A stretch of DNA of 33,365 bases from a virus, in IMG/VR virus record IMGVR_UViG_3300045988_083077; one strand, 5' to 3'. Position numbers and translations under genes: made by a program. The first letter of the stretch is position 1. Every line of letters begins with the position of its first letter. The notes beneath the pieces are model-generated. The model was not told the DNA's origin. It was given only the letters and a program-made list of their open reading frames with translations, and searched no databases. Positions 1-33,365 of this stretch are shown piece by piece.

Positions 1-55
1 TTTTTATAGTGGTGCGCCATGAGGGGCTCGAACCCCCAACCTACTGATTCGTAGT
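1..55. repeat. attL core direct repeat; bases 10..55 are a displaced 3-prime tRNA fragment on the minus strand, not an intact tRNA
   Basis: Exact 55/55 match to 33311..33365. The reverse complement of 10..55 reads anticodon loop, T arm, acceptor strand and CCA. Identity to a tRNA fold is lost at base 56, where the anticodon stem should continue. Confidence 0.9.
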
Positions 56-107: not shown

Positions 108-1145
108 TCACACATCTGCAAGAATACGAGCTGCTTTTTCTAAATCGCTCATGTCGATGTGAGTGTAAATATTGGCAGTCATTCGTATGTCTGTATGGCC
201 CATCAGCTTTTGAGCTGTCCTGATATCAATCCCCTTTTTTGCAAGATTGGTGCAATATGTATGTCGCAGACAATACTGAACAATATCGCTTGCGAGTGGA
301 TAAGGAGGTATGGGTTTGTTCCGATAGACCTCGCATCCCATTGCAATGTTAATCTTATTCTTAAAAACTTCCCATGTTATTTGTCGGTAATTAACCTTAA
401 CCATCTTGTTTGTTCTAGTGTGGCATATATAATCATCAGCCTTTGTATCCTTGAATAAATCGTATAGCCATTGAGGAAGAGGAACGACACGATCGGCACT
501 TGCCGTTTTAGTCCCGCGAACATGTAGATAGTAGAATCTATCACGGACAATGATATCATTACCTTTGCAGTTATATGCCTCGCTTGGCCGACATCCACAA
601 TATAACATCATTAAGTACGCATAAAACTTGGTATCAGTCAAAGCGACTTTAGTAAAGTACTGCTGCTCTTCTTCCGTCAATGCTCTGCGCTTGAGTTTAA
701 AACCTGCAGGCTTTTCCAGGAACTCGGCAGGGTTGCTATTGATTAAGCCTTCCTGCACAGCTTTACCAAATATAAAGTTCATTGCTTGGTGAACCTTTGC
801 AATCTGTGATGATGACCTCCCGCGCTGACTATTGAGTACTTGCTGACAATGGAGTGGCTTGATAGATTTAAGCGAATACGATCCGATGATAGGGTCAATA
901 TTTGATTGGACGAGGTAAACAAAATTACGCTTAGTACGGTCAGAGCATTTTGTTTTATATGTTTCAATGCAGGTTTTAGACCAGGAAGTAAAGGACATAG
1001 ACGACTCTATGTACACATGACCCTTTTCCAATTCAAGTTTCCTGCGCTCCGCCTTTTGATACAACTCACGCTCGGTATCCGCGTATATTTGATAACGCTT
1101 TCCATCGAATGTAAACGAAGTCCTGAATTTATACTTCTTAGGCAT
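108..1145 (-). CDS. int: Phage tyrosine integrase (site-specific recombinase)
   Basis: 345-aa ORF. The C-terminal catalytic region LRHTYCTNLAKKGIDIRTAQKLMGHTDIRMTANIYTH shows H-x-x-R, H and Y. An upstream Arg box is present (CGCRPSEA). The gene lies directly beside the att repeat. Confidence 0.95.
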   Translation of the reverse strand: MPKKYKFRTSFTFDGKRYQIYADTERELYQKAERRKLELEKGHVYIESSMSFTSWSKTCIETYKTKCSDRTKRNFVYLVQSNIDPIIGSYSLKSIKPLHCQQVLNSQRGRSSSQIAKVHQAMNFIFGKAVQEGLINSNPAEFLEKPAGFKLKRRALTEEEQQYFTKVALTDTKFYAYLMMLYCGCRPSEAYNCKGNDIIVRDRFYYLHVRGTKTASADRVVPLPQWLYDLFKDTKADDYICHTRTNKMVKVNYRQITWEVFKNKINIAMGCEVYRNKPIPPYPLASDIVQYCLRHTYCTNLAKKGIDIRTAQKLMGHTDIRMTANIYTHIDMSDLEKAARILADV

Positions 1146-5199: not shown

Positions 5200-5643
5200 A
5201 TGATAAAGAACAGCAAACTCTATGTCTACATTGAGTACGAGGAAACTGCAAAAGGAATCATAGTTCGAAATCATCACGATGGAGTTTCGATGCTAATAAG
5301 TAAGAAGAACACAGATCAAGAAATAAGGCAGTTCAAACAAGAAATCATAGATGACATAGTCGAACTTATGTCAAATGTCCACATTAAAGAATGCAAGGTA
5401 TGTCACAAAAAATACTACACACAGTATATGCAGCAACGCAACTGCTCAAAGAAATGTAGCGAAGAGGCACAAAGAGAAAGCGTACGCAGATGCTATCAGG
5501 CAACAAAAGAAAAGGAAAACATCGGAACGGCCTCAAACAATGAGAATCTCGACAGAGAAATAGCGGCCGCAGACGCAGAAGGCATTTCGTACGGAAAGCG
5601 AAAGGCACGCGAATTTGCGAAGACAGTAAGGGTAGAAATATGA
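5200..5643 (+). CDS. Hypothetical protein with a zinc-ribbon-like motif
   Basis: ATG at 5200 lies 7 nt after AGGAGG; the track start at 5197 is TTG. CKVCHKK...CSKKC is present. Confidence 0.65.
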   Translation: MIKNSKLYVYIEYEETAKGIIVRNHHDGVSMLISKKNTDQEIRQFKQEIIDDIVELMSNVHIKECKVCHKKYYTQYMQQRNCSKKCSEEAQRESVRRCYQATKEKENIGTASNNENLDREIAAADAEGISYGKRKAREFAKTVRVEI

Positions 5644-7194
5644 AATTCATTGATTTTTTTAGCGGTGTGGGGGGGTTCACGCATGGGATGGAACTTGCAG
5701 GACACGAGTGTATTGGTCACTGTGAGTTTGACAAGTATGCAGAAGCAAGCTATCGCTCAATGCACACTATCACAGAGGGTCAACGAGAATACTTGCTTAC
5801 CTTACCGCTCAGACAAAGACAGAAGGAGATTTTAAAGGATGAGTATCTTAATGGAGAATGGTACGCAAATGATGTTCGAAGAGTTATCGCAGACGACATA
5901 CCACGAGCAGAATGTTGGTGTTTTGGATTTCCCTGCCAGGACATTAGCATCGCAGGACACCAACACGGATTTAAAGGAAATCGCTCAAGCCTATTTTTTA
6001 GAATTACAAACCTTATTGAACAGCTCAAAGAGGAAGATAGACCCGACACCCTTTTCATTGAAAATGTTAAGAATCTACTTTCTGTTAATCGAGGACTCGA
6101 CTTCGCAAGACTTCTCGTTGAGTTGGACAAAATTGGGTACGATGCGGAGTGGGAAGTTATCAACTCGAAACACCATGGCGTCCCACAAAACCGCGAAAGA
6201 GTGTTTATTGTTGGACATCTTAGAGGAGCAGGTAGACGGGAAGTATTTCCTATCGAGAAAGCAGGCGGAGAAAATTGTATTAAGCAAATAGGTCTTATAG
6301 GGGGGGGTGAAACGAGATAATCCCAATCGTTACAGAGTTTACGATCGTGAGGGAATTGCTCCCTGCCTAACAAAATGTGGAGGTGGAGGCCTAGAGGCAT
6401 ATATAACACAACCATTTGGGGTTGTAAAGACAAGCAGCAAGCTGCAAGAACTCGAAATTGCAAACTGCTTGACAGCGAATGAGGATCGAGGGGTGTCAAA
6501 GCAAGGCCCATCAGGAACTGCAGTTGCTATACCACTAGCATTTTCAGAGCAGTTTGGTATAGACAAGTCATCAAAGGCACCTCAGAAAATAGACATAGCA
6601 AATTGTCTGCTTGCAAGGGAAGACAGCGGAGTAAAAACACACTCTGCAGAGGGAACAGCAATAGCAATTCCAGTCCTAACGCCTGAGCGAGAAAACAAGC
6701 GACAGAATGGACGAAGAATGAAAGAAGATGGCGAACCCTCTTTTACACTAACAGCACAAGACAGACATGGCGTTGCAATATCCGTGCAACCAAATGATAA
6801 AAGTGGGGTGGATGAAATCAAAATAAAGGAAGCTACAAAAAAAGGATATGCTCTTGCAGACAAGGGAGATAGCGTCAACCTCGCAGTACCAAATAGCACA
6901 ACAAGACGAGGAAGAGTAGGCGACAAAGTCGCGCAGACACTAGATACATCTTGCAATCAAGGAGTTGTAGTAGAGCTATACGATGACTGCAGTGTGTGGG
7001 CAACATGGAGCGAAAAATATAACTGCTATCTTGCAATAAGAAAACTAACACCACGCGAGTGCTTTAGATTGCAAGGTTGGGAGGACGAATATTTTGAAAG
7101 GGCAGAACAGCTAAACTCAAACAATCAACTATACAAGCAGGCAGGTAACGGAGTGACAGTTAATGTAATAAAACACATAGCAGAGAGGATGTAA
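5640..7194 (+). pseudogene. DNA (cytosine-5)-methyltransferase split into two ORFs (5640..6320 and 6307..7194) by a +1 frame offset at a G8 tract; either phase-OFF or a pseudogene
   Basis: The first ORF carries motif I FSGVGGF, motif IV GFPCQDIS, motif VI ENVKNL and motif VIII QNRERVFIVG. The second carries RKLTPRECFRLQGW and the motif X-like QAGNGVTVNV. Removing one G from 6300..6307 gives a continuous frame reading ...QIGLIGGVKRDNPNRYRVYDREGIAPCLT... Confidence 0.9.
6300..6307 (+). repeat. G8 homopolymer at the junction of the two C5-methyltransferase ORFs
   Basis: Counted directly: g at 6300 plus ggggggg at 6301..6307, followed by t. Confidence 0.95.
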
Positions 7195-10043: not shown

Positions 10044-10176
10044 AATCAAAACTTCGGATACCAGGGAAAAAAAACAGTGTTATCATGATAGTGTGGAGTG
10101 TGACGGGATAAGGGCAACGGCACACCGCAATACATCTCTCAAACTAAAGTGTTTGAAACTCATAATTCACTAAGCA

Positions 10177-10206
10177 AAGGGCAGTTTTATAGCTGCCTTT
10201 TGTTTT
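10177..10206 (+). terminator. Rho-independent terminator-like hairpin upstream of the ParB-methyltransferase gene
   Basis: An aagggcag / ctgccttt stem with an 8-nt loop is followed by a T-rich tail. It lies inside the 5-prime extension of track ORF 10149..11087, which argues that the real start is ATG 10227. Confidence 0.55.
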
Positions 10207-10226: not shown

Positions 10227-11415
10227 ATGAATTACAAAGAAATAGAAATCAGCAAGCTAATGCCATACGAGAACAATGCAAGAACGCACAGTGAGGCACA
10301 GCTAAATAGAATTGCAGAAAGCATAAGCGAGTTTGGATTCATCAATCCGATACTAATTGACAAGGAATACGGAATTATCGCAGGTCATGGAAGAATGATG
10401 GCAGCAAAACAACTCGGAATAGACAAGGTGCCTTGCTTATTTGTTGAGCATCTAAGTGAGGAACAGAAACGAGCATACATAATCGCAGACAATAAACTCG
10501 CACTAGACGCGGGATGGGATTACGACATACTCGAAAGCGAGATGAAAGCACTGCAGGAGATGGACTTTGATTTAGAGCTAACGGGTTTCACGGAAGATGA
10601 AATCGCAGGCATAATCAAACTAGGAACTGAAGAGGAATACGAGGACGACTTTGACCCTGAAGAGGCACTACCTGAAGAGGCAGTCACAAAGCCAGGAGAC
10701 ATATGGCAGATAGGAGAACATGTACTTGCATGTGGCGATAGTACGAACAACGAGGACATGAAGAGGCTTTTAGATGGCAGGGTGGTAGATTTAATAGTCA
10801 CAGATCCACCATACAATGTGGCATATGAAGGCAAGACAAAGGACAAACTGAAGATTCAAAACGACCATCAATCAACTGACGACTTCACAGCCTTCCTAGA
10901 GGCAGCGTTTAAAAACATGGCAGAATGGCTAAAACCTGGGGGGGGTGGTCTACATATGGCACGCAGACACGATGAGAAAGGCTTTTTTAGATGCAATAGA
11001 GCAGACAGACTTATCAGTACGAGAAGTGCTTGTTTGGGTAAAGAATACGATGGTTCTAGGACGACAAGATTACCATTGGCAGCATGAACCCTGCCTTTAC
11101 GGATGGAAAGAAGGAGCTGCACACTATTTTATCGATGACAGAACGCAGACAACAGTAATGCAGTACGACAAACCTGCAAAGAGCATAGAACATCCAACAA
11201 TGAAACCTATCGAGTTAATTGCAAAACAAATACAGAACAGCAGCAGAACAAACGAGATCGTTTTGGATCCATTTGGTGGAAGTGGCACAACTCTTATAGC
11301 ATGCGAACATCTGAAGAGGAAATGCTTAACCATGGAACTAGATCCAAGGTACTGTGATGTCATCGTAAAAAGATGGGAAGAACTAACGGGACAAAAAGCT
11401 GAAAGGCTAACATAA
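10227..11415 (+). pseudogene. ParB-like N-terminal domain fused to a beta-class N6-adenine/N4-cytosine DNA methyltransferase, split by a +1 frame offset at a G8 tract; either phase-OFF or a pseudogene
   Basis: The ParB/Srx-like part is PYENNARTHS...IIAGHGRMMAAKQLG. Catalytic motif IV is IVTDPPYNV. After the break comes the AdoMet motif VLDPFGGSGTTLIACE. Removing one G from 10938..10945 gives ...EWLKPGGVVYIWHADT... in a continuous frame. Confidence 0.9.
10938..10945 (+). repeat. G8 homopolymer at the junction of the two ParB-methyltransferase ORFs
   Basis: Counted directly: ggg at 10938..10940 plus ggggg at 10941..10945, followed by t. Confidence 0.95.
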
Positions 11416-11435: not shown

Positions 11436-11891
11436 ATGGCAAAGGGCAAATATGATGAATGGCGAACCAAGGAAGGATTGTTAAAAATCGAGGGATGGGC
11501 GCGAGATGGACTTATAGATGAGCAGATAGCTCACAACATTGGAATATCGAGGAAAACGCTCAACGAATGGAAAAACAAATATAGTGACATTCGTAACGCC
11601 TTAAAAAAAGGCAAGGAAGTCGTAGACATCGAAGTCGAAAATGCGCTCCTCAAAAATGCACTTGGATATGACTATGAAGAGACAACGATAGAGGTCGATT
11701 CTAAAGGCAAAAAACGAAAGAAGATTATAACCAAGCATGTGCAGGGGGACACCACTGCGCAGATTTTTTGGTTAAGAAACAGAAAACCACACTTGTGGAG
11801 AGATACGCGTAACATCGCGGTAACTGCAGAGGATAGCACCAAACTCGATGCAATTATGACACAGTTGGGCGGTGAGGGCCTTGAAGAGTAA
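11436..11891 (+). CDS. terS: Terminase small subunit
   Basis: 151-aa ORF with a strong RBS (ggaaggagg). It has an HTH-like DEQIAHNIGISRKTLNEWKNKY segment, and TTAQIFWLRNRKPHLWRD is typical of Gram-positive phage small terminases. It lies directly upstream of terL. Confidence 0.8.
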   Translation: MAKGKYDEWRTKEGLLKIEGWARDGLIDEQIAHNIGISRKTLNEWKNKYSDIRNALKKGKEVVDIEVENALLKNALGYDYEETTIEVDSKGKKRKKIITKHVQGDTTAQIFWLRNRKPHLWRDTRNIAVTAEDSTKLDAIMTQLGGEGLEE

Positions 11892-19459: not shown

Positions 19460-19472
19460 GGGGGGTGATAGC

Positions 19473-19841
19473 ATGTATGTTGATAAAGAATATTATATCA
19501 ACACATATAGCGGCAAACTCCCTGCAGAGGAAGTACAAAGGTTCATTACAAGCGCAAGCGAGCACATTGATTCTTTGACATTTAATAGGATTAGAGGGTT
19601 GGGTTTTAATAGCCTGACCCTTTTTCAGCAAGAAAAAATAAAAAGGGCAGTTTGCAGGCTTGCAGATTTCGAGTACGAAAACGAAGATTTAATACAATCA
19701 GTATTAGCATCGTACAGCATTAATGGGGTGTCGATGTCTTTTGGCACATCATGGAATGTAATCGTACAAGATGGAGTGGCATTACCACGCGACATATATA
19801 GTCTGATAAAACAGACGGGATTAGCAAGGAAGGTGATCTAA
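19473..19841 (+). CDS. Putative head-tail connector (gp6-like adaptor)
   Basis: 122-aa ORF, the first of four small genes between the capsid and tail tube genes. Assigned by position and size. Confidence 0.5.
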   Translation: MYVDKEYYINTYSGKLPAEEVQRFITSASEHIDSLTFNRIRGLGFNSLTLFQQEKIKRAVCRLADFEYENEDLIQSVLASYSINGVSMSFGTSWNVIVQDGVALPRDIYSLIKQTGLARKVI

Positions 19842-33274: not shown

Positions 33275-33315
33275 GCCTTGAAAAGTGTTAAAATACAGCA
33301 TTTTCAAGGCTTTTT
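33275..33315. terminator. Bidirectional hairpin terminator abutting attR; on the minus strand it follows the tRNA
   Basis: A 10-bp stem gccttgaaaa / ttttcaaggc with a 16-nt loop, flanked by an A run upstream and a T run downstream. Confidence 0.65.
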
Positions 33316-33365
33316 ATAGTGGTGCGCCATGAGGGGCTCGAACCCCCAACCTACTGATTCGTAGT
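33311..33365. repeat. attR core direct repeat
   Basis: Exact 55/55 match to 1..55. Confidence 0.9.
33320..33365 (-). tRNA. 3-prime part of a tRNA gene, read as tRNA-Arg (anticodon ACG); the 5-prime part lies beyond the window end
   Basis: The reverse complement reads a-CTACGAA (anticodon loop, ACG) - TCAGT - AGGTT (variable loop) - GGGGG TTCGAGC CCCTC (T arm) - ATGGCGC - A - CCA. The fold was built by hand. The window stops inside the anticodon stem. Confidence 0.7.

Follow-up and report, generated by a model that had tools for sequence, protein, structure and literature searches.

The IMG/VR virus record IMGVR_UViG_3300045988_083077, a stretch of 33,365 nucleotides that we refer to in its entirety as the window, carries a gene for a DNA methyltransferase that is split into two overlapping open reading frames (ORFs) at a run of eight guanines (G8). 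A second gene 4.6 kb upstream, coding for a C5-cytosine DNA methyltransferase, is split in the same manner. The comparison of both genes with their relatives leads us to conclude that they most probably harbor genuine hypermutable poly-G tracts, which give rise to heritable ON and OFF states of orphan methyltransferases encoded by a phage.

The ORFs in frame 0 and frame +1 overlap across the G8 run, and the length of this simple repeat inside the gene sets the reading frame, as in contingency loci. With G7 or G10, both halves are joined into a single ORF of 395 or 396 amino acids (aa), respectively, both reading ...AEWLKPGGVVYIWHADT..., and G6, G8 or G9 leave them out of frame (Table 1). A first-pass annotation of the window had reported the +1 offset, the G8 junction and the correction to G7, and had assigned a ParB-like N-terminal domain as well as the DPPY and FGGSGTT motifs to the gene; these calls were borne out in our analysis. 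In the repaired protein, Pfam identifies PF02195 (ParB_N, residues 4–86, 2.7e-9) and PF01555 (N6_N4_Mtase, residues 187–380, 5e-35), the latter match extending over positions 1–220 of the 221 positions of the profile. The protein further matches phrog_498 'DNA methyltransferase' end to end (6e-173) and the PADLOC entry MTase_II PDLC03229 (1e-139). Its nearest solved structures in the PDB are DpnA-like N6-adenine, N4-cytosine and CcrM methyltransferases, and Spo0J/ParB chains for the ParB_N domain. The order of the motifs, with DPPY (motif IV) preceding FGGSGTT (motif I), is that of the beta class and, together with the full-length profile match, places the protein in the ParB_N-fused phrog_498 family of PF01555 enzymes. 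The repaired gene is hence predicted to encode a ParB_N-fused beta-class N6-adenine/N4-cytosine DNA methyltransferase, termed N6 methyltransferase in the following. Its neighbors were checked and comprise a rolling-circle-type replication initiator, a 129-aa protein and the small terminase subunit; no res or hsd gene was found beside it. Since no restriction gene is adjacent, the N6 methyltransferase is a putative orphan, Type II-like enzyme.

We propose that strand slippage (slipped-strand mispairing) in replication would add or remove one guanine in the tract. At G7, the gene would be read through and yield the active 395-aa enzyme, and G6, G8 and G9 would shift the frame after Gly239. The OFF product would keep the ParB_N domain and the DPPY motif and lose the half that binds S-adenosylmethionine (AdoMet), so that no methylation would occur. 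The description of the gene as switched off in the first-pass annotation would thus apply to methylation, but not to the product as a whole, of which the ParB_N and DPPY half remains. Slippage is presumably frequent and reversible within a lineage. The C5 methyltransferase gene carries two tracts of the same kind, designated C5a and C5b. As switchable tracts reside in both methyltransferase genes, a phage population would therefore consist of a mix of methylating and non-methylating epigenetic types, of which the window would represent the OFF/OFF type.

The length of the N6 tract was determined in 27 related contigs, which were retrieved regardless of tract state from IMG/VR, by a metagenome pattern scan and by a look-up of the small terminase protein TerS (10 contigs from IMG/VR, 6 further distinct contigs from short-read metagenomes, 10 contigs from the TerS look-up and the window). 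Two long-read contigs (L175 and L178) were set aside because they are error-rich and contain many 1-nt indels. The tract was found to be G7 in 19 of the 27 contigs, G6 in four and G8 in four. The first-pass annotation had considered its interpretation untenable if orthologues lacked a homopolymer at this position and G8 were unique to this assembly. The opposite was observed, as orthologues carry the tract and G8 is present in many independent assemblies along with G6, G7 and G9. On the protein level, the main cluster contains 113 distinct full-length sequences. Two fragment clusters of 43 and 12 sequences consist mostly of the 286-aa product of G8, and a cluster of 59 sequences is composed of 248-, 249-, 286- and 110-aa forms, which correspond to G6, G9, G8 and nonsense alleles. 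The C termini ...KPGGWSTYGTQTR and ...KPGGGWSTYGTQTR identify the 248- and 249-aa forms as the products of G6 and G9. The upstream fragment of the window itself (JGI gene call P0138) is annotated as 'ParB-like chromosome segregation protein Spo0J', and exactly this 286-aa protein also occurs in other assemblies. The longest contig was of unit length (~33 kb) for 8 of 24 OFF fragments and for 1 of 15 ON proteins, a difference that is not significant (p=0.12).

Differences in tract length were also apparent between genomes that are otherwise identical. Contig L192, an integrated prophage on a 90.8-kb contig, and L193, a 33.4-kb contig of another assembly that is circularly permuted, show no mismatch to the window over 11,138 and 11,147 nt, respectively, except that both carry G6 instead of G8, and L193 matches the window over a further 9,948 nt without mismatch. 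In all pairs of at least 99.8% identity that contain any gap, the gap is located only in a tract, the host/att end of the pair L192/L193 excepted. The sole gap between L172 (G7) and L206 (G8) is the N6 tract, and the sole gap between L197 (G7) and L198 (G8) is the C5b tract. Length polymorphism in otherwise identical genomes, exceeding other mutations, is characteristic of contingency loci.

The parallel to the C5 methyltransferase drawn in the first-pass annotation proved correct, since the G8 run of C5b splits this PF00145 gene likewise. In the window, the gene consists of the ORFs 5640..6320 and 6307..7194, which form a protein of 517 aa when C5b is G7. In relatives, C5b is G7, G8 or G6, a 223-aa G9 form is present in the protein database, and the cluster of the 226-aa G8 fragment has 46 members. 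In L001 and L181, the C5a tract has G8 and shifts the frame. Every one of the four ON/OFF combinations of the two genes is represented, in a sample that is small, non-independent and partly selected for tract state, so that co-variation of the two tracts, which the first-pass annotation had raised, is not established. Apart from its tracts, the C5 gene of the window contains a variable region (6500..6760) with an internal repeat of ~25 aa (IANCLTANEDRGVSKQGPSGTAVAIP / IANCLLAREDSGVKTHSAEGTAIAIP), which is reminiscent of the tandem target-recognition domains of multispecific phage C5 methyltransferases; the C5 alleles of relatives measure 517–534 aa and have a different variable region. Some relatives possess, as a third methyltransferase, a Dam-like enzyme (PF02086, 263 aa) whose gene lies between those for C5 and YopX. 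No G/C run of at least five is present in this gene, and the Dam-like methyltransferase would therefore be constitutive.

We next consider the state of the N6 gene. OFF states are dispersed throughout the gene tree and go back to at least seven events that arose independently among the 27 sequences. When the tract was set to G7, an uninterrupted ORF of 395 aa was obtained for 18 of 18 complete OFF alleles. As in contingency loci, the phylogeny thus shows repeated, independent occurrence of ON and OFF lengths in alleles that are otherwise intact. In 31 alleles with a pS of about 0.19, the ratio of nonsynonymous to synonymous polymorphism (pN/pS) amounts to 0.10 in the part before the tract and to 0.075 in the part after it, so that the half only present in the ON product is as strongly constrained as the rest of the gene. 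Because of these values, the enzyme appears to be maintained by strong purifying selection, as expected of a functional gene that is turned off repeatedly but transiently, and not of a pseudogene.

Three G runs of at least seven are present in the window, and all of them lie inside the methyltransferase genes, which together account for 8.2% of its length (p about 6e-4); a C run of at least six does not occur in the window. Counted as stretches of seven consecutive guanines, five were observed compared to 1.33 in dinucleotide shuffles. GGG is the rarest glycine codon of the window (13.7%), and of the eight Gly-Gly pairs in the methyltransferases, three are encoded by GGG-GGG, as opposed to 0 of 39 in the 31 other ORFs (Fisher p=0.0035). 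In the lineage of the window, the sequence P-G-G-V is encoded with GGG GGG GTG, unchanged in 31 alleles. None of 147 homologues (39–59% identity) has a G run of at least six at the aligned site, and most of them read PGAV instead of PGGV. Since these distant homologues lack such a run, the N6 tract is a derived feature. Poly-G is also found in other ParB-methyltransferase lineages, whose genes are unrelated (~50% identity): an in-frame G14 is located just before DPPY (L062, 1554..1567; L064, 6525..6538), and a frameshifted G10 just after ParB_N in a metagenome-assembled genome of Endozoicomonas (L158, 419..428). Length variants of the G14 lineage were not found in the only two contigs that exist, both of which are G14. 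The tract follows ParB_N in each of the three lineages, so that OFF products would keep this domain; with three cases, a tract placement that spares ParB_N is a hint.

Even if slippage is real, the tracts might be neutral mutational hot spots, in which the OFF state is a transient, mildly deleterious or neutral loss of an accessory gene and switchability itself is unselected. We regard this explanation as unlikely but serious, as several observations weigh against a selected switch or against hypermutable tracts altogether. Independent nonsense alleles exist, namely a TGG codon changed to TAG 15 nt before the tract in L006/L177 (aligned to window positions of about 10923..10925) and 110-aa truncations (P0154 and P0156) on six contigs; loss of the enzyme is hence tolerated at least sometimes, as a neutral hot spot would give too. 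In some relatives, the C5 allele is of different sequence and has no tract at the C5b position. The window's own allele is on record in the public collection in OFF forms only (G8 and G6 for N6, G8 for C5). Furthermore, the conservation of synonymous sites in the tract is not statistically compelling, given that the whole codon block 238–245 is invariant. G7 is short for a classical phase-variable tract, and the switching rate may be modest. Tract lengths were read from consensus contigs, which limits what they tell about switching rate, reversibility and the mix within a sample, and the sequencing platforms of the public assemblies are presumed ones. A neutral hot spot is, however, less easy to reconcile with the confinement of three GGG-GGG tracts to methyltransferase genes, with the derived origin of the N6 tract and with the independent emergence of poly-G in other ParB-methyltransferase lineages. 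Moreover, one synonymous change would stabilize a gene under a pN/pS as low as that downstream of the tract, yet none of the 31 alleles is interrupted. Codon choice, derived origin, convergence and the lack of stabilizing synonymous changes thus favor selected switchability, with room left for neutrality.

Alternatively, the tract might be G7 everywhere, with G6, G8 and G9 being homopolymer miscalls of sequencing or assembly. We consider such an artefact very improbable, even though homopolymers are a known source of error and 1-nt indels abound in the two excluded long-read contigs. Identical non-G7 states were obtained in independent assemblies, as G6 is shared by L192 and L193 and the G8 of the window by L194/L195 and a third run (L196), and one identical G8 fragment is present on 22 contigs from many studies. 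A longer A8 run at 10067..10074, located 870 nt upstream of the N6 tract and serving as control, is unchanged in 24 of 24 contigs. The A7/T7 runs at 5654, 6837, 11603 and 12527 show no indel change in short-read contigs, in which uncompensated indels occur almost only at G tracts. Because the A8, A7 and T7 runs stay constant, the length instability is specific to G tracts. Judged from established short-read accuracy, the share of ~30% non-G7 contigs is also far above the error rates of short-read consensus sequences.

Still less probable is programmed recoding, in which G8 would be the designed state and the full-length enzyme would be obtained via +1 ribosomal frameshifting or transcriptional slippage. 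Homopolymers can promote slippage of polymerases and ribosomes, which is established for A/T runs, and the two frames indeed overlap across the tract. Recoding sites, however, keep a fixed out-of-frame arrangement in orthologues. Such an arrangement is not conserved here, as most contigs (19/27) carry G7 in frame and both of the OFF frames are represented; a stimulatory element was not seen, none having been searched for. Transcriptional slippage may nevertheless permit some leaky expression of OFF alleles. Least probable of all is a decaying prophage, i.e. a defective element gathering frameshifts: two genes are frameshifted in one 33-kb element, but both lesions are at the only two G8 runs of the window, all other long ORFs from the integrase through the lysis genes are open, the same sequence is found in the unit-length, circularly permuted contig L193, and the OFF alleles are free of secondary lesions.

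The genes surrounding the two methyltransferases are those of a temperate phage, arranged in the order integrase, lysogeny control, single-stranded DNA-binding protein, two methyltransferases, replication initiator, terminase, portal, head, tail and lysis. Positions 1..55 of the window are identical to 33311..33365 and contain a sequence resembling a tRNA 3' end; this terminal repeat looks like the core of an attachment (att) site. The junction between prophage and host in L192 (about 11100..11140 of this contig) corresponds to window position ~10. Since the ends of the window are identical and the L192 junction falls near its start, the window appears to be one unit-length temperate phage genome bounded by the att core. 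ARAGORN detected no complete tRNA at the att site, neither in the window nor at the L192 junction. The N6 methyltransferase gene is placed at the head of the packaging module, and a terminator-like hairpin just 5' of it suggests that the gene opens a transcription unit continuing into terS and terL. Between integrase and repressor, an interval that often holds defence genes expressed from the prophage, the window encodes an HSDR_N_2 protein, for which PADLOC gave no match. The ribosome-binding region of the ORF 19473..19841 contains a G6 run at 19460..19465 (AAGGGGGGTGA, separated from the ATG by 7 nt), which is G5 in L002 and L173; it may be a further length-variable G run, altering the spacing of the ribosome-binding site. 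The coordinates of the features are given in Table 1.

Table 1. Features of the methyltransferase genes and of their surroundings (positions refer to the window unless a contig is named)
Feature	Position	Strand	Remarks
Predicted ParB_N-fused beta-class N6A/N4C DNA methyltransferase gene	10227..11415	+	Frameshifted (OFF) in the window; Pfam, phrog_498, PADLOC
Upstream frame at G8	10227..11087	+	286-aa product with ParB_N and DPPY half, without AdoMet motif I
Downstream (+1) frame	10945..11415	+	C-terminal catalytic half with FGGSGTT; contributes to the enzyme only when ON
ParB_N (ParB/Srx-like) domain	10236..10484	+	GHGR motif at 10383..10394; kept in ON and OFF products
DPPY catalytic motif IV	10803..10814 (aa 193)	+	N-terminal to motif I
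FGGSGTT AdoMet motif I	11272..11292 (aa 349)	+	
N6 poly-G tract	10938..10945	+	G8 (OFF) in the window; in the ON frame Gly238-Gly239 and first base of Val240
Small terminase subunit gene (terS)	11436..11891	+	Directly 3' of the N6 methyltransferase gene; phrog_309, 4e-64
Terminator-like hairpin	10172..10205	+	Just 5' of the N6 methyltransferase start; consensus match only
C5 cytosine DNA methyltransferase gene	5640..7194	+	Frameshifted (OFF) in the window; PF00145, 6e-60
C5b poly-G tract	6300..6307	+	G8 (OFF) in the window; same split as in the N6 gene
C5a poly-G tract	5669..5675	+	G7, in frame in the window; inside motif I (FSGVGGF)
Integrase gene	108..1145	minus	Opens the window
HSDR_N_2 (PD-(D/E)XK nuclease-like) protein, 249 aa	1292..2041	minus	Between integrase and repressor
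Dam-like methyltransferase gene, L186	5131..5922		
Dam-like methyltransferase gene, L187	5190..5981		
Dam-like methyltransferase gene, L189	5129..5920		
Dam-like methyltransferase gene, L200	2337..3128		

The TerS protein is indexed in 607 blocks of public human metagenomes, in which the phage is very common. The host flank of L192 shows a Firmicutes-type holB-PSP1...abrB arrangement, and its class 3 fructose-1,6-bisphosphatase is 73–74% identical to Anaerovoracaceae proteins, a hint on the family level. Because of this arrangement and this similarity, the host is probably a human-associated Clostridia-type bacterium. The C5 G8 fragment P0318 (WP_315456226.1) carries the NCBI label 'uncultured Prevotella sp.', in contrast to the Firmicutes-like flank of L192, and probably stems from a mis-binned phage contig. 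Distant blastn searches of GenBank phages retrieved no close relative but only matches of 66–73% over a quarter of the methyltransferase gene, and GTDB species-representative genomes contained only relatives of at most 55% identity.

Methyltransferases controlled by repeats are known from phasevarions, in which phase-variable Type III mod or Type I hsdM/hsdS methyltransferases are switched by simple sequence repeats in Haemophilus, Neisseria, Helicobacter, Moraxella and Streptococcus suis (PMC5909438, PMC7383803, PMC8125046). The switch that we propose resembles them in that slippage of an intragenic repeat would set the ON/OFF state of a methyltransferase and that several independently switching methyltransferases are possible per genome. 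In contrast to phasevarions, the phage enzymes are putative orphan, Type II-like enzymes without res or hsd partners, and their tracts are located in lytic modules of a temperate phage and not on the chromosome; a regulon under their control would be hypothetical. In phages, hypermutable poly-G tracts have been described for Campylobacter Fletchervirus phages (Sorensen et al. 2021, Cell Rep 35:109214, as cited in PMC11959909 and PMC12823448), and a passage of a 2025 review calls this case 'exceptional' for phages using phase variation (PMC11959909). According to these citing articles, poly-G inside phage genes gives rise to phenotypic subpopulations of virions, a feature that our phage would share. 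The Fletchervirus tracts, as described there, reside in receptor-binding protein genes of virulent phages whose host is itself rich in poly-G tracts. The tracts of the window, on the other hand, belong to genes for DNA modification in a temperate phage with a Clostridia-type host and would change the epigenetic state of the DNA and not adsorption. Poly-G in a structural or receptor-binding gene was not found, since all G runs of at least seven are in the methyltransferase genes and the tail genes carry none.

Orphan methyltransferases of phages, which serve in protection from restriction or in host reprogramming, include the Dam-like PamA of a Staphylococcus aureus prophage, as described in passages of a 2026 review of prokaryotic methyltransferases (PMC13076061). 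With its full-length match to phrog_498, the N6 methyltransferase resembles these enzymes, and like in Streptococcus Javan prophages its gene adjoins the terminase genes. As a candidate for a parallel, the 'DNA modification methylase (x2)' of Streptococcus Javan447 was rejected, because it is split by an ordinary stop near the C terminus and not by a homopolymer. Control of phage orphan methyltransferases by repeats was absent from the reports examined, and the passages searched in the review cited above (PMC13076061) name no repeat-switched phage enzyme. Short homopolymers that switch genes by frameshifting are also known from other Gram-positive or actinobacterial genomes, with a general survey (PMC2831843) and an analysis of homopolymer tracts of Mycobacterium tuberculosis (PMC10334774). 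These cases are similar with regard to coding G/C runs of ~7–9, recurrent reversible frameshifts and homoplasy across isolates, but those tracts are found in chromosomal metabolic and regulatory genes and not in phage DNA-modification genes. A full-text search of a limited literature collection found no report of a repeat-switched methyltransferase encoded by a phage. While repeat switching and phage-encoded methyltransferases are each known separately, their combination therefore appears to be new.

As to the benefit of hypermutable tracts in these genes, both enzymes presumably act in lytic growth and would methylate progeny DNA, because the N6 gene is located just upstream of terS and the C5 gene in the early/replication region. 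Methylation in the ON state would protect the phage against classical restriction-modification systems and, at the same time, would make its DNA a target of methylation-dependent (Type IV) restriction or be costly in another way. Based on gene position and general knowledge, mixed states may be selected as a form of bet-hedging, a notion to which we give close to even, if anything somewhat lower, credence. More tentatively, the two orphan methyltransferase genes with their three independently acting poly-G tracts could generate progeny in up to four methylation states, in which some virions would be pre-adapted to hosts that possess classical restriction-modification systems and others to hosts that possess methylation-dependent restriction, and the G14 and G10 lineages could have converged on the same solution.

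Phase-variable methyltransferases are central in bacterial epigenetics, where they are described as chromosomal Type I and Type III systems, and phase variation of phages is treated as exceptional and exemplified only by the receptor-binding proteins of Campylobacter phages. One practical consequence concerns gut-virome catalogues, which under-count functional methyltransferases since annotation pipelines label the OFF fragments 'ParB-like protein' or 'hypothetical protein'. Because TerS is indexed in so many blocks and the phage is so common in human metagenomes, read data with which the proposed switching can be tested exist already. If the tracts are indeed selected switches, phages would also randomize their own DNA modification state, with consequences for host range, for the outcome of restriction versus Type IV defence and for the assignment of hosts in metagenomes on the basis of methylation.

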